DNA of 55,181 nucleotides, taken from contig JASFYY010000067.1 in the NCBI GenBank assembly GCA_045046875.1, positions 1 to 55,181 on the forward strand, written 5' to 3'. Positions 1-8,612 of this stretch are shown here, in pieces. A model generated the notes under the pieces. The model saw nothing but the letters and a program-made list of their open reading frames with translations, made no database searches and was not told the origin of the DNA. How positions within the stretch are numbered: position 1 is the first letter of the stretch; each line of letters starts with the position of its first letter. Source of the DNA: Verrucomicrobiota bacterium. GTDB lineage: Bacteria; Verrucomicrobiota; Verrucomicrobiia; Verrucomicrobiales; DEV007. The position numbers and the translations under genes are program-made.

Positions 1-660
1 CAACTGGATCAAGAGGATCGCGTGAGCGAGAATCAGATTTCAAAGTTCTGGCATGACGCACTCAAGCCTTACGGCGCTCAAGCGAAGCACTGGGAGCATT
101 CGGAGGACCCCTTGGACTCCGTGATGAGCTACCTACCCGCCAACTTTAAAAATAAAAAAAATGAAGCCTACCGATGGAAGACGCAGCCGTGGTTTGTACA
201 AACCTTTAGGACGAAAACTGGAATGTGGCTCGTTTGCCTAGATGGGAATCCAAATAAATTTGAAAGTGAGGCCTATCAAGATCTCGCGGCGTTACATTCT
301 GCGATGGTGAAATATTTGGAGAAGAGTGACGGTATTTGGCCTCACCCCGACCAAGATGCCTACGAGAGTGAGCTGAACTACTCGAACTTCTGGATCGAGA
401 GTCTCAAGCCATACGGAGCCGAGAAAAAACATTGGGTGCACTCGAGCAAGCCTTCGGCCTTTGGAATGGATTATATGCCTTCTATCTTTGATGGTAAGAA
501 GAACACTGCAAACCGGTGGGAGAAACAGCCGTGGTTCATACCGAGGTTCAAAGAACAGAATGGAATGTGGGTTGTCCGTCGAAATGGGGAGCCGCGAATT
601 TGGAAATCTGGGACAGTTCCGGCAGGGCAACCTGATGCGAAATTGCAGGAAAACGACTGA
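1..660 (+). CDS. Cassette 1: hypothetical protein with tandem ~110-aa Trp-rich repeat (5'-truncated)
   Basis: Frame 1 is open from base 1. Two copies of FW..LKPYGA..KHW.HS..P....Y.P..F..KKN.A.RW..QPWF...F....GMW.V...G.P. The stop is immediately followed by attC1. Confidence 0.8.
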   Translation, partial: QLDQEDRVSENQISKFWHDALKPYGAQAKHWEHSEDPLDSVMSYLPANFKNKKNEAYRWKTQPWFVQTFRTKTGMWLVCLDGNPNKFESEAYQDLAALHSAMVKYLEKSDGIWPHPDQDAYESELNYSNFWIESLKPYGAEKKHWVHSSKPSAFGMDYMPSIFDGKKNTANRWEKQPWFIPRFKEQNGMWVVRRNGEPRIWKSGTVPAGQPDAKLQEND

Positions 661-790
661 GCGAACAAGAGAGAGCAGGTAATTCCTTCCCGCGCATTAG
701 TTCTCTTGCCTTTTGGCTTCGATTACATCACGATTTTATTTAAAGTGACAGGGCTTCGTTCCAAGAATGACCTGTCTCGAAACGTTCTGC
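660..790 (+). repeat. attC site 1
   Basis: AGCGAAC...GTTCTGC. Arms GAGA(G)CAGGTAATTC / GAATGACCTGTCTC with an extra G, and a 5-nt spacer before GTT. Confidence 0.8.
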
Positions 791-796
791 CCCAAA

Positions 797-1276
797 ATGA
801 ATTTACTAAATGGAAAAACGAAATATCTCGCGGTCGGTTCATGGGCGCTTTTGGTCGTGGGATGTATATGTTTTTTCACCACTGAAGTTATATGGTCAGT
901 TTTATTTATTCTTGGGGGCTTTTGGTTACGTACTGCACTGCCTACAAAAAACTATGACCCAGATAGAAAATCAAATCTATCCCAATCGCTCAAGTATTTC
1001 GGGGTCTTTTTTTTAGTAAGCGGTATATGTCAGACGCCTCTAATTAAGAGCGCGATGCATCAGGCGTTTAATGAAATTAGGGAAGCTTCCTTTCCTTTGC
1101 CTGCGCTATATATCATTGGAGGATTGGGGTGTTTGATTTCGAGGGTGATATTTTTAGATTGTAAATATTTAAAATCCGTTCCAGAAGCAGATATAGAGCG
1201 ATACTACAAATTAAATAACACAGAACAAAACGCAGCAGAGCAACCCGCTCCTCCTCCTCAGTCAAAATCTAAATGA
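797..1276 (+). CDS. Cassette 2: hypothetical membrane protein
   Basis: ORF with ~4 hydrophobic segments. ATG 797 follows R'. The C-terminus (EQNAAEQPAPPPQSKSK) is encoded by the left arm of attC2. Confidence 0.75.
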   Translation: MNLLNGKTKYLAVGSWALLVVGCICFFTTEVIWSVLFILGGFWLRTALPTKNYDPDRKSNLSQSLKYFGVFFLVSGICQTPLIKSAMHQAFNEIREASFPLPALYIIGGLGCLISRVIFLDCKYLKSVPEADIERYYKLNNTEQNAAEQPAPPPQSKSK

Positions 1277-1346
1277 AAACTTTAACCCTAAACTTGAACA
1301 CGAAAGCTCGCTGCCAGTAGCGGGTTGCCTGTGCTCGACGTTCGCT
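1220..1346 (+). repeat. attC site 2
   Basis: ACAGAAC...GTTCGCT. Arms GCA(G)CAG(A)GCAACCCGCT / AGCGGGTTGCCTGTGC. Close paralogue of attC10. Confidence 0.9.
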
Positions 1347-1352
1347 GGGAAA

Positions 1353-1778
1353 ATGAGCCAAGTTCTTAACATTCGATTCTCCAAAGACGCAGTCGAAATG
1401 TTGGAAGAGTTTATAGACGGCTGGAATACGATTGGAACCAGTAAACTTATAAACGAGCATTTTTATGAACTGAATTACGACGATCAGAGCGACAGCCTTT
1501 CTATTGGACTTGAAGAAGATTCAAGTCTCCTCATTCAAGGCTATACGACTGATATCAGCTGGGGTTATATCGAGCAATTTTCTAAATCTAACAATGGAGA
1601 GATTTCATGCGAAGGAGCTCCGTTGGCTGATGAGCGCGAACTCACTGAATCAAAGCTATCCTTTTTCGGAGCCATAATTTCGATTGGCGGTTTAATTGTG
1701 CTTGTTGTTTTATGGCCATTCATGCTCATCTATGCTTTATTAAGGTTACTTTTCACGATCGTAATAAGCCGCAAATGA
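1353..1778 (+). CDS. Cassette 3: hypothetical protein, acidic N-domain plus C-terminal membrane anchor
   Basis: 141-aa ORF between attC2 and attC3 with a hydrophobic C-terminus. Confidence 0.75.
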   Translation: MSQVLNIRFSKDAVEMLEEFIDGWNTIGTSKLINEHFYELNYDDQSDSLSIGLEEDSSLLIQGYTTDISWGYIEQFSKSNNGEISCEGAPLADERELTESKLSFFGAIISIGGLIVLVVLWPFMLIYALLRLLFTIVISRK

Positions 1779-1791
1779 TCCTCAGAAAAAC

Positions 1792-1917
1792 AGCGAATAA
1801 AACGCTGCTCACCAAGCACTGAGCCTCCTCGTTATTAAAAATCAACATGACTTTAAACACCAACATCTTCGTTCACACTCGTTCCCAGCTCAGTGCTGGG
1901 TGAGCTCGACGTTCGAC
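1792..1917 (+). repeat. attC site 3 (R'' ends AAT instead of AAC)
   Basis: AGCGAAT...GTTCGAC. Arms GCTCACCAAGCACTGAGC / GCTCAGTGCTGGGTGAGC with a TCGAC spacer. Confidence 0.85.
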
Positions 1918-1924
1918 AAAAAAA

Positions 1925-2335
1925 ATGAACCGTAAATTAAAATTTTTCGTAACTCTTATCCTCTTTATCACAACGCCCTACTTAAAGTCGGAAGAAAAAC
2001 TCGTAGATTTCAAAATCCCAATCACTCAGCAGCTTGCTAAAGAGCTCCAGAAAAGATGCGGAAAGCTTCAACTCCCTTTGAGAGAAGTTGTGATGGGTGT
2101 GGGAATTATATTTCATCAAGGATCCTCTATCCAAATAGATAGGGAAAATTCTGTAATTTCAGGCCGTCTTGCGCATTCTGAAGCAATGCTTGTATTAGCT
2201 CTCAGTGCGCATTTTGCCTCCTCGTCGGAGAAGGAAATTAAATCCTATTTTGATGATATCGACGAATCTCATTGCTTCGACCCTAAAAAAACAACGACGG
2301 AAAAGGTCGAACAAAAGTCAGTACCGAATCCCTGA
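1925..2335 (+). CDS. Cassette 4: hypothetical exported protein
   Basis: Signal-peptide-like N-terminus. The C-terminus (VEQKSVPNP) runs into attC4. Confidence 0.75.
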   Translation: MNRKLKFFVTLILFITTPYLKSEEKLVDFKIPITQQLAKELQKRCGKLQLPLREVVMGVGIIFHQGSSIQIDRENSVISGRLAHSEAMLVLALSAHFASSSEKEIKSYFDDIDESHCFDPKKTTTEKVEQKSVPNP

Positions 2336-2431
2336 GCCGCCTCGTAGTTATGATTCACTTTGATTTTAACCATCAAACGCTTCGTCAACGCGCGCTCCCA
2401 CTCAGGGATGCGGTGTGACTCGACGTTATGT
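2306..2431 (+). repeat. attC site 4
   Basis: GTCGAAC...GTTATGT. Arms AGTCA(G)TACCGAATCCCTGAG / CTCAGGGATGCGGTGTGACT. Close paralogue of attC8. Confidence 0.9.
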
Positions 2432-2838
2432 GCAGAAAATCACATCTTCTGTTTTTTGCTGTTTTATTTTTCATAACAGCTTGTAAAAGCATCACGTCAG
2501 GAGGAAAAAATGATTTCTCTGACTTTATCCAGGATTCTGACACGTTTACCGTTGTGATCTATGATGGTGGACATATCACTAACAGGTATCCACTATTGAA
2601 ATCGAGTGTCGAACACCGAAAGCTTAAGGAATGGTTGAAAAGCAATGAATCCGGATGGGAAAAATCAGGATTTAGAAGCCGTTATACCACTTACGCGCCT
2701 GACATACTTATTTCATCAGGACTCAAAAAAATTAATTTTATCAAAGGCGGTGTGATCATATTTATTCCGAACGTCGGCCAATTTGAACAAGCGACCGAAG
2801 AAAGTGATTTAGTATTCTTGAGACGTCGAAACACATAA
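2428..2838 (+). CDS. Cassette 5: putative lipoprotein
   Basis: Hydrophobic leader with lipobox-like ITAC. ATG lies inside the R' box and the stop TAA lies inside the R'' box of attC5. Confidence 0.75.
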   Translation: MCRKSHLLFFAVLFFITACKSITSGGKNDFSDFIQDSDTFTVVIYDGGHITNRYPLLKSSVEHRKLKEWLKSNESGWEKSGFRSRYTTYAPDILISSGLKKINFIKGGVIIFIPNVGQFEQATEESDLVFLRRRNT

Positions 2839-2946
2839 CAAATCGTGGCTGCGAACAGGCTACCCGCTGTGAGTTGAAAATTCATACATTAACCTTGAAC
2901 ATAAAGCGCGTTCTCAGGTAGACTGTCGTAGCACTCAAACGTAGGA
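2833..2946 (+). repeat. attC site 5 (R' = GTAGGA, one T short)
   Basis: ACATAAC... Arms GTG(G)CTGCGA(A)CAGGCTACC / GGTAGACTGTCGTAGCAC. Confidence 0.8.
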
Positions 2947-2956
2947 GGAAGGGAAA

Positions 2957-3637
2957 ATGATTTTTAATATTGTCGTTATTGTTCCATTTTTGATCACTCT
3001 ATTCTTTTGGCTCAGGGGGCTGTGGAAGCAGTGTATAAGTGATGTCATTGTCTCTCTTATTACATTGGGCGTCGCAATCGGAGCATATTTTTATGCATAC
3101 CAATATATTTCCTTTGTCGGTATTCCGTGGTCTTTTCTTTTGATTTTGGCCATTGGAGGAGGGGTAGTTGTTGCCCTAAAGCGTAAGGAAGGCGGCGGTA
3201 AAGCCTATGTTCTAGCACCCATCATTGCTGTGTGTTTAAGCGGAGTAATGTTTCTAGGTGAACAGAAATGGAATGCCTCTGAAAATTCCATCCTTGTTAT
3301 AACCCCATATCGTGCTGCCGGGACTTGGGTTTTTGATGATCCAGGAGCAGGTCTTAAAGCAGAGCCCTTTATTTCAGGCATGCCAGAAATAATTGATGAG
3401 TTAATTGCAGAGGCAAAGGTTGCTGATGCAAATAAAGGTTTCAGGATGATATTTTCCAGTCAACCTTTTCCTAACCACCAATCAGAAATAACTTGGGTTC
3501 GTCCTGAATCAGGTGGCAACTGGTATTATTCGGAAGAGTATAAGCTCGAAGGTTGGCTTTGCCCTGCTTTGTTCAAATATTTCAGGAGAGCTCCTCGGAT
3601 AATATATGTGAAAGCTGAGGGGATAAAAGATTCCTAA
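2957..3637 (+). CDS. Cassette 6: membrane protein fused to DUF6717-like domain
   Basis: N-terminal ~4 TM segments. C-domain NSILVITPY..GTWVFDD..GL..EPF..G....ID...EGWLCPALFKYF resembles DUF6717 (from memory). GGAGG RBS upstream. Confidence 0.75.
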   Translation: MIFNIVVIVPFLITLFFWLRGLWKQCISDVIVSLITLGVAIGAYFYAYQYISFVGIPWSFLLILAIGGGVVVALKRKEGGGKAYVLAPIIAVCLSGVMFLGEQKWNASENSILVITPYRAAGTWVFDDPGAGLKAEPFISGMPEIIDELIAEAKVADANKGFRMIFSSQPFPNHQSEITWVRPESGGNWYYSEEYKLEGWLCPALFKYFRRAPRIIYVKAEGIKDS

Positions 3638-3692
3638 CAAGAGCTTGCATGTGACGTCGCATGCGCGCCGCACATGAAGATTGACGTTAGAC
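3632..3692 (+). repeat. attC site 6 (short, 61 bp, classical-looking)
   Basis: TCCTAAC...GTTAGAC. Arms CTT(G)CATGTG(A)CG / CGCACATGAAG. Confidence 0.9.
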
Positions 3693-3713
3693 CCCAAAAA
3701 TAAAACTACTGTA

Positions 3714-4103
3714 ATGCGCTGCATCATCTTTTTAACTATTGTATTGACAATAACATTGATCTCGACCTCCGCTGAGACAGTGCGTGAGCGACTGGCCTCA
3801 GATCCTAAATTCCCCATCTATACTGTGGTTTTCGGTATTACCGTGGTGACTAAGGGCAAATTTGACAGCTTCAGTATATCCAAAATCGTTGATCCCAAAT
3901 CCGGAACCACTGACTCGGTTAAAATTCCTATTTCAAAGCAATTCGTGGCAGCTACTCGAAAGAAACTTATCGAGATGAAGGTATACGAGCCCAGACTCAA
4001 GGATGGGAAGCCAGTGGAGTTTTATACTTATGTATATTATTCTCCAGACTATCCAAAGGTTGTGATAATGGATTTGGACGTCTCCATTGAAGATCAACCG
4101 TAA
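3714..4103 (+). CDS. Cassette 7: exported protein, possibly TonB C-terminal-like fold
   Basis: Signal peptide and YEPRLKDGKPV motif reminiscent of TonB_C. ATG 3714 preferred over TTG 3681, which lies in attC6. Confidence 0.65.
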   Translation: MRCIIFLTIVLTITLISTSAETVRERLASDPKFPIYTVVFGITVVTKGKFDSFSISKIVDPKSGTTDSVKIPISKQFVAATRKKLIEMKVYEPRLKDGKPVEFYTYVYYSPDYPKVVIMDLDVSIEDQP

Positions 4104-4104
4104 G

Positions 4105-4210
4105 GTCTAACAAGTAGGTAGAGGAAACGGCGATCACTAGCCTTGACTCTGTGAAGCCAATCGTAATATGATTGGCAAGAGGCAAATCCTCTGCCCGTTT
4201 TCAGTTGTCA
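4105..4210 (+). repeat. attC site 7 (degenerate right arm)
   Basis: GTCTAAC matches the cassette's GTTAGAC. GGTAGAGGA/TCCTCTGCC can pair. Candidate R' GTTGTCA at 4204 has irregular spacing. Confidence 0.5.
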
Positions 4211-4249
4211 GCCCATTTTAACTTTGATACTATGGAAGCAACGCTAACA

Positions 4250-4375
4250 GTCCAACAATAGTCCGCGCCGAATCCCTGAGCCGTAATGTAGTTATGATTC
4301 ACTCTAATTTTAACCATCAACTTTTGCGTCAATGCGTGCTCCCACTCAGGGATGCGGGGTGACTTGACGTTTGCA
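4250..4375 (+). repeat. attC site 8
   Basis: GTCCAAC...GTTTGCA. Arms CCGAATCCCTGAG / CTCAGGGATGCGG. Aligns end to end with attC4. Confidence 0.88.
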
Positions 4376-4379
4376 ATAA

Positions 4380-5060
4380 ATGCTTCGTAAAGTAACACTG
4401 GCCCTAAATGCGATCGTGGTCGTTTTGTCTCTCACTCTCTTTTGCTACACGTTTTTCGCAAGGCCGCATTTGACCGAGCACACGAGGGCATTCGTTACGG
4501 AAAAGACGCTTTCGTATTCCAAGCCGCTTGTGGATCTGATGCGAGCAGGTATCGATTCTCCACTCTCTCAGAAGTTCATTTCAGAAGAGCTTCGTTCGCT
4601 AATTGAAGAGGAGCTTAAGCTCTACGATTCAAATTCCGCAGAATATGTGACGGCGCTGACCTCAGCACGAGCTGAGTCATTAGGCACAGGTAAGGTCGCC
4701 AAGTTTAAAGAAAAGATTCGAAGCTATTACCAATCGACTCTGAGCTCATTGGTTTGCGACCTCAGAATATTTTCAGGTTCCAATATTGTGGCAGGCTTCT
4801 TCGCGATGTGGCTCCTACTGACCAAGGGATTCAGGCGGAGTGACAAGGTGGCCGCTTTCTCATTCGTGGTTTTTGCGGCTGTAGCATACAGCACCTATAG
4901 CTACATTGACGGAGTTTCATTTTTACGGATTTTGCTCAAGAGCCACCTCGGATGGTGGTATCCTGCTGGTATTGTTATAATGATTTTGGCGCTGGTCCTC
5001 GAGTATGGCCTAAACAAGGAAACAGATGCAGAGCAAGGCGTCGATCCTCTTCCTCTATGA
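4380..5060 (+). CDS. Cassette 9: hypothetical membrane protein
   Basis: N-terminal TM segment plus 3 C-terminal TM segments. The C-terminus (AEQGVDPLPL) is encoded in attC9. Confidence 0.8.
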   Translation: MLRKVTLALNAIVVVLSLTLFCYTFFARPHLTEHTRAFVTEKTLSYSKPLVDLMRAGIDSPLSQKFISEELRSLIEEELKLYDSNSAEYVTALTSARAESLGTGKVAKFKEKIRSYYQSTLSSLVCDLRIFSGSNIVAGFFAMWLLLTKGFRRSDKVAAFSFVVFAAVAYSTYSYIDGVSFLRILLKSHLGWWYPAGIVIMILALVLEYGLNKETDAEQGVDPLPL

Positions 5061-5088
5061 GGATGGCTCGGACGTTGATACGTTTGCG
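5028..5088 (+). repeat. attC site 9 (short, degenerate; R'' ends AGC)
   Basis: GCAGAGC...GTTTGCG. GGCGTC/GACGTT and ATCCTC/GAGGAT pairing, 5-nt spacer before GTT. Confidence 0.6.
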
Positions 5089-5095
5089 TTAATAA

Positions 5096-5785
5096 ATGAA
5101 AGTTGCTCTCAAACCATTTACATCAAAGCAAACTCAAGAACTTGAGGGGTATATTGCTACTTGGGTCAAAATCGTGCGTATAGCAGCGTATGCCGTTTTA
5201 GTTGTTTTTACCGGTCTTATTTTCAGAGGGTTTTCACAAATCCTTTTTACCAAAACCTCGAATACACTCACCGATATTTTTTGGGTCTTACCAACCGCAG
5301 CGTTTGCATTATATATATGGATTCGTTCGGGTAAATGGACAGGAGGCAGGCAATTTCATGATGCCGTCAAAAAAGATATTGCAGGAGGGAACGCGCGTGT
5401 CTTAAGCGTCAAAATTACTGATGCGATTTTAATTGAAGAACAAGAAGATGATGGCCCTTCATACATTATTTTAAGCACAGAAGGAGAAACCGTTTTTTTC
5501 TCTGGTCAGTATTTAGATAGACTACAGGCGAAAGGCTTCCCTTGGTCTGAGATTGAAATTGTTGAGGCTCCGGAATCGAAAGTGTTTTTTGGAATTAAAA
5601 AGAAAGGAGCTCGTATAAATCCTTCAGTGAATCGCATGCCTCTCGAATATGAGGAAGCAAAATCAATGGGAGCGTTTGATAATGATTATCAAGTTCTTAA
5701 TGTGAAATTCGAAACCTTGAAGCGCAAAGCACAACAAAACGCAGTAGAGCAATCCTCTACTAGCCTTCGGTCGAAACCCAAATGA
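5096..5785 (+). CDS. Cassette 10: hypothetical membrane protein
   Basis: Two TM segments plus a soluble domain. The C-terminus (AQQNAVEQSSTSLRSKPK) is encoded in attC10. Confidence 0.8.
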   Translation: MKVALKPFTSKQTQELEGYIATWVKIVRIAAYAVLVVFTGLIFRGFSQILFTKTSNTLTDIFWVLPTAAFALYIWIRSGKWTGGRQFHDAVKKDIAGGNARVLSVKITDAILIEEQEDDGPSYIILSTEGETVFFSGQYLDRLQAKGFPWSEIEIVEAPESKVFFGIKKKGARINPSVNRMPLEYEEAKSMGAFDNDYQVLNVKFETLKRKAQQNAVEQSSTSLRSKPK

Positions 5786-5856
5786 AAACTTTAACCAATT
5801 AACCTCTTCGCCAACACTCGCCCTCGCTAGGGGGTTGCCTGTGCTCGACGTGTTGC
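5729..5856 (+). repeat. attC site 10 (terminal; R' reads GTGTTGC)
   Basis: GCACAAC... Arms GCA(G)TAG(A)GCAATCCTCTA / TAGGGGGTTGCCTGTGC with a TCGAC spacer. Paralogue of attC2. Confidence 0.85.
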
Positions 5857-6076
5857 TCTCAGCATCAGAGCATCAGAGGTTCGAAAACTGTGAGTCAAAT
5901 TCCTTGCGGAACTCGACCTTTACCAATGCGAGGACTTTGGCTCCTTGATTCATTCGGCTTTTCAGGTTGCCTGTCTGACTTGGTTCAACCCTTATTGAGC
6001 TTTCGTCGGAAAAGGAGCCGAAGGCAGACGGGAGTCAATGTCCGATTTCCTGTTACTTACCTGCATGGAAGGTGAG

Positions 6077-6670
6077 TCACATATCTTTCAGCAAGCTCTT
6101 ATTCTTCCACAAGTAACCTATCCCTGACCAGACGGTGAGGATGAGGGTGGTGGCGATGAGCAGGTTGCCGACGATGGTGGGGCCGAAAATTTTCGAGTCG
6201 AACAAGGCGTCGAGCCATTGCAGGCCGGGGTCTTCCGAAGCGAGAAGAACCAGGAAGTAGATCACGGTGATGATCTGCCAGATGGTTTTGTGCTTGCCGA
6301 GTTTTTCTGCGGCCAGCACTTTGCCCTCGGCGGCGGCGACCAGGCGTAGACCGGTGACCATGAACTCGCGGGCTAGAATAGCGATCACCACCCAGGCGGG
6401 AAACAGGGCGCGGGTGGATTCGAGGGAGCAGAGCATGACAAAACCGGAGGCCATCAGGACTTTGTCGGCGAGTGGATCCATTAATTTGCCGAAGTCGGTG
6501 ATGAGATTGTGTTTGCGCGCCAGGTAGCCATCGAGGAAGTCGGTGATGGCGGCGATGCTGAACAGCAGCAGGGCGGCGGTTTTTCCGTAGGGCAGATCAA
6601 TGGATAAAGCGGCGACAAAAAAGCCGGTCAGGATCAGGCGGCCGACTGTGAGTTGGTTGGGCAGGTTCAT
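6077..6670 (-). CDS. pgsA: CDP-diacylglycerol--glycerol-3-phosphate 3-phosphatidyltransferase
   Basis: MNLPNQLTVGR start and the CDP-alcohol phosphatidyltransferase motif DFLDGYLARK...FGKLMDPLADK. Confidence 0.95.
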   Translation of the reverse strand: MNLPNQLTVGRLILTGFFVAALSIDLPYGKTAALLLFSIAAITDFLDGYLARKHNLITDFGKLMDPLADKVLMASGFVMLCSLESTRALFPAWVVIAILAREFMVTGLRLVAAAEGKVLAAEKLGKHKTIWQIITVIYFLVLLASEDPGLQWLDALFDSKIFGPTIVGNLLIATTLILTVWSGIGYLWKNKSLLKDM

Positions 6671-6677
6671 GGCAGGA

Positions 6678-7085
6678 TTAAGCGGAGGTTTCGGCGAAAA
6701 CAGGGTTTTTCCAGATAGGCACGGTTTTTTTGATCCGTCTGAGGTATTCGCGAGAGATGTCGAAAGCAGCCTGACTGTGGGCGGTTTGCACCCGGATGAG
6801 GATCGAAGCGTCTCCTGCGGCGACGAAGCCGATGCGGTGATGGATGGCCACCAAGTGCTCGGGGTTTTCCTCCAGCATGGTCTCGACGATCTTGTTGAGC
6901 TCCGTCCCCGCCATGTCTGGATAGCAGGAATAGTCGATGCCGGTGATGATACTACCGTCTTCTTCATCGCGCACTACACCGTGGAAACGGATGTCGGCCC
7001 CGTGTTTGCTAGAGGGCGGGAAGCCCGCCTCCACCTCGAGGACGGTTTTTTCAGAAATAGAAACTTTTAAATCACTGCTTGCCAT
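6678..7085 (-). CDS. moaE: Molybdopterin synthase catalytic subunit
   Basis: GA..F.GVVRD, Y..MA, HHRIG, and IKKTVPIWK motifs. Confidence 0.9.
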   Translation of the reverse strand: MASSDLKVSISEKTVLEVEAGFPPSSKHGADIRFHGVVRDEEDGSIITGIDYSCYPDMAGTELNKIVETMLEENPEHLVAIHHRIGFVAAGDASILIRVQTAHSQAAFDISREYLRRIKKTVPIWKNPVFAETSA

Positions 7086-7193
7086 TTTTTGAAGCTGGGT
7101 AGTGTGCTATACGGTTTGATGTGGCGGAAAATGATCCCGACATGGTCTTGGGCTAAAGCTAGCACGAATCAGCAGCACACAAAAACAGATATC

Positions 7194-8612
7194 ATGAGTA
7201 AAAGCGACTTTGGATTGATTGGTCTCGCAGTGATGGGACAGAATTTGGTATTGAATGTCGAAAGCCGGGGCTTTCAAGTATCGGTTTATAACCGAACCAC
7301 CTCAAAAATGGAAGGTTTTGTCGCGGAGAATCCGGATAAAAATCTGGTGGGAGCAAAATCGCTGGAGGAATTTGTCGAAAGCCTCGAACAGCCCCGCAAG
7401 GTGATGATCATGGTGCAGGCGGGTGGTCCGGTGGATGCGGTGATCGAAGATTTGATTCCGCTATTGGACAAAGGTGATTTGATCATCGATGGCGGCAATT
7501 CGCTTTACACGGATACTGAGCGTCGTTCGGCCTACTTGGAGCCTACTGGTTTGCTGTTCATCGGCACGGGGGTGTCGGGCGGAGAAGAAGGTGCGCTGAA
7601 AGGCCCTTCGATCATGCCGGGTGGGCCGGAAGCGAGTTGGGAAGTAATCAAGCCGGTGTTTGAGGCGATTTCGGCTAAAGTGGATGGGGTTCCCTGCGTG
7701 ACGCATATCGGTCCGGGAGGAGCGGGGCATTATGTCAAGATGGTGCACAACGGCATCGAATACGGCGATATGCAGTTGATCTGCGAAGCGTATCAAATTT
7801 TTAAAACCGCTGGATTCACCACGGATGAAATGGCTCAAGTGTTTGAGGACTGGAATAGTGGCGATCTTGAATCGTACTTGATTCAGATCACCAGCAAGAT
7901 TTTCACCATTAAGGACGAAGAGACCGGACAAGCGATCATCGATGTGATCATGGATCGTGCGGGGCAAAAAGGCACTGGGCGCTGGACCGTGATGAGTGGT
8001 GTGGAGAACGCGATTGTGATTTCGACCATCAACGCAGCGGTGGAAGCGCGTATTTTGTCGGCGAAAAAAACCGAGCGTGTGGCGGCGGCTCCGAAATTTG
8101 ACGGACCGACTGCGAAGATCGAAGGAGATAAAGCTGAGCTGGTGAAAAAGGTAAAGGATGCGCTGTATGCGTCGAAGATCGTTTCTTATGCGCAGGGTTT
8201 GGACATGATGCAGAAAGTGGGCGAGGAGCACGGCTGGGGATTGGACCTCGGTTCGATCGCCCGGATTTGGCGTGGTGGTTGTATTATCCGCGCGCGTTTC
8301 CTCAATCGCATCACCGAGGCTTATGAAAACAACCCTGAGTTGAGCAATCTGATGCTCGATCCGTTTTTCAACAAGGTCATGAATGAGACTCAGCAGAACT
8401 GGCGTGATGTGGTGGCTCTGGCAGTGAGCAATGGGATTCCGGTTCCTGCTTTTTCGGCTTCACTGGGTTATTACGACAGTTACCGCAGCGAGCGTCTGCC
8501 GGCGAATTTGTTGCAAGCACAGCGTGACTTTTTCGGAGCGCATACTTATGAGCGCATTGATAAACCTGCAGGCGAGTGGTTTCACACTGACTGGCCGGAG
8601 GTGATTGATTGA
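7194..8612 (+). CDS. gnd: NADP-dependent 6-phosphogluconate dehydrogenase
   Basis: GLIGLAVMGQNL, VKMVHNGIEYGDMQ, LPANLLQAQRDFFGAHTYER. Confidence 0.98.
   Translation: MSKSDFGLIGLAVMGQNLVLNVESRGFQVSVYNRTTSKMEGFVAENPDKNLVGAKSLEEFVESLEQPRKVMIMVQAGGPVDAVIEDLIPLLDKGDLIIDGGNSLYTDTERRSAYLEPTGLLFIGTGVSGGEEGALKGPSIMPGGPEASWEVIKPVFEAISAKVDGVPCVTHIGPGGAGHYVKMVHNGIEYGDMQLICEAYQIFKTAGFTTDEMAQVFEDWNSGDLESYLIQITSKIFTIKDEETGQAIIDVIMDRAGQKGTGRWTVMSGVENAIVISTINAAVEARILSAKKTERVAAAPKFDGPTAKIEGDKAELVKKVKDALYASKIVSYAQGLDMMQKVGEEHGWGLDLGSIARIWRGGCIIRARFLNRITEAYENNPELSNLMLDPFFNKVMNETQQNWRDVVALAVSNGIPVPAFSASLGYYDSYRSERLPANLLQAQRDFFGAHTYERIDKPAGEWFHTDWPEVID

Follow-up and report, generated by a model that had tools for sequence, protein, structure and literature searches.

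An integron cassette array in a Verrucomicrobiales genome, probably with an attI head of its own and no neighbouring integrase gene

The window analyzed here, a stretch of 55,181 nucleotides, is the whole contig C67 of a Verrucomicrobiota source genome (G000; 5.59 Mb, 163 contigs, 94.7% complete), and its bases 1–5856 form an array of integron cassettes. Nine same-strand open reading frames (ORFs) are separated by ten attC-like sites, and the GC content is 43.3% in the array against 51.6% in the remaining contig. The array end is followed, after a gap of 220 bp, by a convergent pgsA-like gene, with moaE and gnd beyond it; the nearest relatives of gnd are labelled Verrucomicrobiales or Verrucomicrobia. 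In this respect, the initial annotation, which was made from the sequence alone and described AT-rich cassettes in such a genome, was correct. The attC edges in the window were set by hand, replacing the automatic ones. In the list below, closure is the match between the opening R' of a cassette and its own R'', and X1 is a contig from a near strain.

1–660, + strand: ORF of cassette 1, truncated by the contig start; two repeats of ~114 aa; no family
660–790, + strand: attC1, 131 bp; strain X1 has a joint at its crossover G (784)
797–1276, + strand: ORF of cassette 2, running into attC2; 97% identical DNA in genome G003, with another attC body
1220–1346, + strand: attC2, 127 bp; GCA[G]CAG[A] type; closure 6/7
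1353–1778, + strand: ORF of cassette 3, 141 aa; hydrophobic segment at the C-terminus
1792–1917, + strand: attC3, 126 bp; R'' end AAT; closure 6/7
1925–2335, + strand: ORF of cassette 4, 136 aa
2306–2431, + strand: attC4, 126 bp; closure 7/7
2428–2838, + strand: ORF of cassette 5, 136 aa
2833–2946, + strand: attC5, 114 bp; closure 7/7; R' short of one T
2957–3637, + strand: ORF of cassette 6, 226 aa; four hydrophobic segments and DUF6717
3632–3692, + strand: attC6, short, 61 bp; strain X1 has a joint at its crossover G (3686)
3714–4103, + strand: ORF of cassette 7, 129 aa; closure 7/7
4105–4230, + strand: site 7, a chimera of two broken attC halves, without R'
4250–4375, + strand: attC8, 126 bp; decayed paralogue of attC4
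4380–5060, + strand: ORF of the cassette between attC8 and attC9, 226 aa; no family
5028–5088, + strand: attC9, short and degenerate; edges uncertain
5096–5785, + strand: ORF of the last cassette, 229 aa; no family
5729–5856, + strand: attC10, 128 bp; decayed paralogue of attC2 (GTG replaces GTT)
6077–6670, − strand: host flank, CDP-alcohol phosphatidyltransferase (pgsA-like), then moaE and gnd; synteny anchor

Seven of the ten window sites are 114–131 bp long and belong to a family of ~126 bp. The paralogue pairs proposed earlier were recovered (attC2 and attC10, 75% identity; attC4 and attC8, 84%), as were the length range given for most sites and the non-canonical cores. A family profile found 58 sites at E<1e-3 on 18 contigs of G000. 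Length and base statistics were obtained from 46 clean-edged family sites, chosen by hand genome-wide, in which the attC length is 126.1 ± 3.6 bp (n = 46). The sites possess R'' (AAC) and R' (GTT), L boxes, an unpaired spacer and an extrahelical base in L'', except for site 7. The unpaired spacers are 5/6 or 5/5 in 41 of the 46 sites. The arms match at 11.3 of 14 positions with up to two bulges allowed, a freedom that inflates the figure, and at 7.3 of 14 without bulges. The unpaired base 9 nt after R'' is a top-strand G in 41/46 clean sites; the same G was found in all seven long window sites and in attC6, in line with the earlier description. A second unpaired A, said to follow often, is present in 24 of the 46. 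The pairs flanking the extrahelical base vary (first position: G:C 29, A:T 6, T:A 6). TCGAC or TTGAC lies directly 5' of GTT in 6/10 window sites, as stated for most of them. A top-strand extrahelical G is a C on the bottom strand, at the position (16) where attC sites usually have G (PMC5027507). An earlier study knew of one natural C site and found that C increases excision by several integrases (PMC3053210).

The statement that every cassette's opening R' complements its own R'' was too general. Closure reaches 6–7/7 in five of the nine pairs (cassettes 2, 3, 4, 5 and 7); cassette 6 matches only with a 1-nt deletion (3/7 ungapped), and the three distal pairs give 4/7, 2/7 and 3/7. The R' cores at 2941, 4369, 5082 and 5850 seem to be one base short or rearranged relative to R'', which may reflect decay, imprecise recombination or an assembly error. 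Across 34 adjacent pairs genome-wide, mis-edged ones included, mean closure was 2.71/4 versus 1.64 after shuffling (0 of 10,000 shuffles), and a same-site control gave 1.73. The earlier count of ten attC hairpins holds in part. Site 7 joins the left part of one attC family to the inner part of another, and unconstrained bottom-strand folding was better than for dinucleotide shuffles (z ≤ −2.5) at 5/10 sites, this chimera included. The bottom strands of attC1, attC5, attC8 and attC9 did not fold beyond shuffles, and attC10 was marginal (z −1.6). Taken together, closure, site 7 and folding point to largely intact proximal sites 1–6 and a decaying distal part. A supposed "cassette 8" without an ORF was dropped; the site 7 region is a fusion of attC halves. 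A de novo attC scanner, which gave 7 matches in 30 kb of control DNA, was excluded from the counts.

The family is broader than its first description as lineage-specific implied. RNAalifold predicted no pair on alignment A2 because the 5/5 and 5/6 subfamilies slip register, and the model built for scanning the relatives (R1) is therefore sequence-only. R1 matched 31/40 relatives, with 22/24 within the taxonomic family. In a shallow phylum sample it matched 2/120 other genomes, a weak negative with only 29 candidates scored per genome. By its sequence matches, the attC family is an order-level one; it does belong to a lineage, but not to a narrow one. Isolated or eroded family attCs were also seen inside contigs of G000 (C54:78900-80500, C59:33400, C86:970, C133:81770 and C8:22200); those of C54 sit in an island with a resolvase.

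The array differs between near strains. The X1 contig, 3,216 bp long, consists of window 2892–3688, 1,113 other bases, window 4–781 and then window 3684–4214. Its cassette order is thus 6-X-1-7, with the joints at the attC6 and attC1 crossovers, and gene order is not fixed. X1 is a single contig from one run labelled hydrothermal vent metagenome, whose flank (6077–7991) is 96% identical to the window. Since attC1 (131 bp) and attC6 (61 bp) are unrelated in sequence, site-specific rather than homologous recombination fits these joints. Three further runs (X2–X4) supplied short pieces only; their uncovered parts are uninformative, and joints between paralogous attCs (side <45) were ignored. Cassette 2 (window 780–1346) recurs in another array, of G003 (C114:46148-46709, locus L131), with 97% identity. 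Both cases present the cassettes as mobile units delimited at G|TT. The site of cassette 2 is of the attC2 type in the window and of the attC4 type in G003, with the switch at R''. This switch of the attC body bears on how cassettes gain or swap attC sites (top-strand or homologous exchange).

A search for an integrase gene and attI upstream of base 1, suggested by the initial annotation, led by synteny to a candidate attI head and to no intI. In a relative, locus L056 (the same DNA as G005:C241 and counted once) comprises a DUF4013 gene, ~270 bp, an attI, four cassettes unrelated to those of the window, and pgsA, and contains no intI. About five attC sites were found at this orthologous locus of G005, and its first cassette closes 7/7 at the head. 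The locus is empty in G003:C52, where a frameshifted DUF4013 gene abuts pgsA without any array. In G000, the DUF4013 orthologue (94.7% aa identity) and the gene upstream of it (98.4%) lie on contig C122, which ends exactly at the GTT of an attI, 272 bp after the DUF4013 gene. The C122 module is 93% identical in this comparison, and its attI family is the one found directly behind the intI of C117 and the intact intI of G001. Because the DUF4013/pgsA synteny with relatives, and this only, connects C122 to C67, we infer that C122 carries the head of the window's array. No intI was found at the C122 head or at the orthologous G005 locus. With at least two attC sites and no intI nearby, the array would fall, subject to the unassembled gap between C122 and C67, among the attC-site clusters without integron integrases (CALINs). 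Sedentary integrons are recognized by >19 attC sites or presence in 100% of a species' genomes (PMC4889954); the window shows ten sites, its head part missing. Of the two options offered earlier, the tail of a chromosomal integron is disfavoured, and a CALIN is favoured, apparently with its own attI, one of many.

Two genes in G000, on C117 and C27, encode proteins above the TIGR02249 cut-off for integron integrases (IntI), so that IntI matches are present in the genome. These two proteins and that of G001 also align with VchIntIA across the IntI-specific insertion. In the IRIWQGKGG stretch of VchIntIA, the G001 protein carries H in place of W, the residue that contacts the extrahelical base. 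The C117 gene is transcribed towards its own attI, first cassette and attC, the latter being 87% identical to attC5 of the window. Its G001 orthologue has an open frame of 470 aa (VchIntIA alignment E 3.5e-67). IntI was found in 23/40 relatives at E≤1e-40. The IntI proteins at L001:1051-1420 and L019:1033-1500 have an N-terminal extension of ~150 aa without a Pfam match. An apparent "small cassette" behind the intI of C27 was discarded, its hairpin being a dispersed repeat. C27:44340-44480, together with C36, C80 and C161, carries a ~140-bp hairpin repeat resembling miniature inverted-repeat transposable elements, with GTAG-led hairpins of the repetitive extragenic palindrome type. These hairpins lie near the C27 intI and a type-2 attI head.

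In total, G000 contains ten attI-like heads, and one alone adjoins intI. Type 1 has six copies (C117, C103, C122, C125 and two on C128). Type 2 is a ~530-bp module in three copies, 81–85% identical, behind unrelated genes (C142, C135 and C12); these match the attI of the divergent intI of G003. The head on C11 is of a third, unrelated kind and closes 7/7. Ten contigs carry array tails, each running into different host genes. A two-sequence and then a seven-sequence profile, the six heads forming part of the training set of the latter, retrieved only the six type-1 heads (E≤5e-29; next unrelated match 0.5). A further model (R2) found type-1 attI in 5/5 other genomes of the genus and in 1/35 others. 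The attI GTT is the exact contig end in C122, C125 and C128 (three of the six type-1 copies) and in G001:C31, and C142 ends two bases past it. Since the attI copies share just 13–14 identical bases at GTT, too few for a repeat-caused assembly break, the first cassette probably varies in the population.

Loci were examined for intI at 30 of 41 attI matches listed, in seven genomes: intI or its remnant was upstream at 7 and absent from 23. No C-terminal IntI remnant beyond E 2.5 was detected at the orphan heads. The first cassette closes 4/4 at 19/28 scored heads (11/19 orphan and 8/9 intI-linked), with a mean of 3.29 versus 1.79 after shuffling (0 of 10,000 shuffles). Behind trxA, G000 and G005 have orthologous orphan heads whose first cassettes differ. 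Two closed genomes indicate that the dispersed arrays are not an assembly artefact. In G029, two arrays adjoin intI genes and a third does not; the head of this third array copies, over 98 nt and with 95% identity, the attI of an integron located 241 kb from it, and the two share a 517-bp cassette (99.6%) in different neighbourhoods. In G033, attC sites occur at at least eight loci and 15 attI-like module copies (E≤2e-10) at nine; of six scored copies, three show perfect closure with the first family attC. Some type-1 attIs (L001:2597 and L019:2604) include an in-frame ATG with the leader MLLRTVPYYTV or MLFRTVPYYTV, which, judging from the reading frame, can let the first ORF start with an attI-encoded leader; the C122 copy is without ATG. 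At the end of C26 (L029:6365-6441), the 3' end of a group II intron (RF00029) is fused to a mid-attC on the cassette strand. The same junction at the end of C57 is a second copy, by sequence only, and both are array starts.

Based on these results, we suggest that the window probably holds the distal part of a satellite array that has its own attI but no integrase gene, and whose cassettes are loaded and shuffled in trans. The attI behind the DUF4013 gene would serve as a docking module, and an integron integrase encoded elsewhere would insert cassettes there. The cassettes would be excised and reordered through the predicted folded bottom strands of the ~126-bp attC sites, and about ten heads and arrays on the chromosome would draw on one attC pool. 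We infer the C122–C67 join, the action of an integrase in trans, the identity of this integrase and a promoter at the head. Several observations weigh against this proposal. The C122–C67 junction is unassembled, and the gap is unseen. The C117 intI has two in-frame stop codons (an earlier reading of a frameshift was wrong), leaving no intact intI visible in G000. The C27 intI is cut by the contig end, with its last ~185 codons present and its 5' part outside the assembly. The C27 locus is unlike the hemD neighbourhood of relatives, so that flanks may have been swapped by rearrangements between arrays; comparison of this neighbourhood gave no assignment for the array of C27. No significant promoter was found at the C122 head (1 site versus 1.3 expected), and a TTTACA-16-TAAAAT-like box, the best match in 16/31 heads, is not at C122. 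Seven further heads lack a downstream family attC and were unscored for closure, and 8/19 orphan heads stay below 4/4, one through a 1-nt edge offset. The X1 reordering shows activity since the strains split and is not proof of action in trans. Finally, no IntI above the cut-off was detected in closed G033, so such networks of many heads can be frozen.

The frozen state is the core of one alternative, in which the heads lost their own intI, the arrays are relics, and strain differences arose by homologous recombination between paralogous attCs. Indeed, decay of intI is seen in the stops of C117, the split intI of G005 and a C-terminal remnant in G004. C103 and the end of the intI on C117 have DNA in common, although the remnant is not significant as a protein. 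Moreover, the distal window sites are decayed, hybrid attCs exist, and integrase inactivation is common (PMC3108266). But the X1 joints fall at the GTT crossovers of unrelated attC1 and attC6 rather than within homologous arms, contigs break at the GTT of attI, and the first cassettes of orthologous orphan heads differ and close cleanly. Besides, there is no intI remnant at 23/30 heads, and the empty site of G003 has no room for an integron. We therefore consider the relic explanation unlikely. The loss of intI itself, documented at some heads, is compatible with a satellite as the origin of heads; only "frozen" conflicts with it.

Another alternative, which we consider improbable, is a complete integron of which the array forms the tail and whose intI is hidden in the unassembled gap; this could be, for example, the cut-off divergent intI of C27, placed there by rearrangement between arrays. 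In favour of such an origin, the array runs off the contig start, and C27 ends within an intI pointing away from its missing head; the G003 orthologue of C27 is a divergent integron, and the C27 flank is not syntenic with relatives. However, DUF4013 and pgsA are adjacent in two relatives, C122 offers a head with the 93%-identical attI module, and nine other tails are available for C27. As for an ordinary CALIN formed by off-target insertion at the GTT of a short attG, with the attI likeness due to chance or selection, cassette insertion at secondary sites is known (bioRxiv 2022.09.11.507474), and among the type-1 copies the C122 module has diverged most (61–63% to the nearest non-orthologue). 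Nevertheless, the profiles retrieve only the six heads, which share a motif of ~100 nt, and with the family profile this motif was recovered behind intI genes in other species; this origin is hardly credible.

If the array is a satellite, the source of its head can be considered. It is conceivable, though we regard it as doubtful, that the promoter-attI head is a self-propagating module, copied within lineages to new chromosomal sites and arrays, so that one integrase, adapted to C at position 16, feeds at least ten independently expressed capture sites across Verrucomicrobiales. Heads located within arrays (C128, G004:C390 and G033), together with starred genome-specific clades for G004 and G024 in the module tree, point to head copying, while 17/28 branches of this tree are unresolved. 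For 17/31 attI modules the nearest neighbour is in the same genome, and module homology mostly ends ~145–155 nt upstream of GTT. The scenario in which intI was deleted once and the type-2 module was then copied was weakened, as the shared 5' motif is a dispersed repeat.

Much of this picture has published counterparts: CALINs, Verrucomicrobiota integrons (PMC4889954, PMC8618304), co-directional intI genes, one attI-headed CALIN and the proposal that distant IntI mobilizes CALINs (PMC4889954, PMC9668308). A CALIN is an attC cluster without an integron integrase, and half have intI elsewhere in the genome (PMC4889954). The window's array resembles them in its several attC cassettes and in having intI elsewhere rather than beside it. 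However, CALINs are defined by attC alone, and an attI head, retained or copied, is absent from the four origins listed in the accessible text of that paper, whereas in the present case a cognate attI, one of about ten repeats, seems to form the head. The CALIN of the Shewanella prophage M16-3 likewise begins at an attI that duplicates the one in a complete integron (PMC9892861). It is one prophage case, while the heads described here are chromosomal, in many copies of two or three attI types, at conserved loci that are full in some species and empty in others. In Xanthomonas, seven conserved CALIN loci lie away from intI, which is frequently inactivated, but attI heads are not reported in the available part (bioRxiv 2025.06.18.660453). 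Sedentary integrons share the long homogeneous attCs (the Vibrio cholerae repeat VCR2 has 133 bp versus 126.1 here) and extrahelical bases at positions 16 and 20 (PMC5027507). They differ from the present case, with its C at position 16 and, instead of a single large intI-adjoining array, a pool spread over at least ten loci. As in Treponema-type co-directional integrons, intI of C117 and G001 is transcribed towards attI; in the portion consulted, one attI per integron is stated for that type (PMC3607928), which belongs to another phylum and has another attC family. Among 11 taxon attC models (PMC8352920, as accessible), the window's family is not included. Full-text searches of the literature, which covered few subscription titles and no supplements, where such sites may be listed, turned up neither an account of orphan attI heads in many copies across a genome nor one of the present attC family.

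The standard model places a single attI next to intI, which limits expression to the front cassettes of one array. With many heads, about ten front cassettes per cell would be expressed and updated at once. The interpretation of CALINs would also change, as many may be live platforms invisible to current tools because these do not model attI. In IntegronFinder, non-class-1 attI goes undetected (PMC9024848). The testable parts that this case supplies are the intact G001 IntI, which is cognate, several attI variants that occur naturally, and loci with and without an array.

The cargo was earlier described as novel membrane and exported proteins. A simple hydropathy scan found a hydrophobic segment in 8/9 ORFs, and DUF6717 of cassette 6 was the sole Pfam family among the nine. 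NCBIfam and PADLOC gave no match for any of the nine ORFs. SLT_beta on cassette 5 (E 0.051, 14 bits versus a cut-off of 27) was treated as noise. No longer homologue of cassette 1 was found, its atlas neighbours being unnamed proteins of the Planctomycetes–Verrucomicrobia–Chlamydiae group, and an Rfam scan of window 1–6200 gave no match. Six ORFs terminate within the left arm of their own attC. Those entering it at 1220–1276, 2306–2335 and 5729–5785 acquire shared C-terminal tails, e.g., EQNAAEQPAPPPQSKSK, which may mark cassette proteins of Verrucomicrobiales. Other arrays of G000 carry a PIN-domain gene (C81), a Schlafen AlbA_2 gene (C19) and a kinase gene (C159). An intergenic repeat of ~60 bp at window 5996–6054 is also present on C50, C115, C55 and C77.

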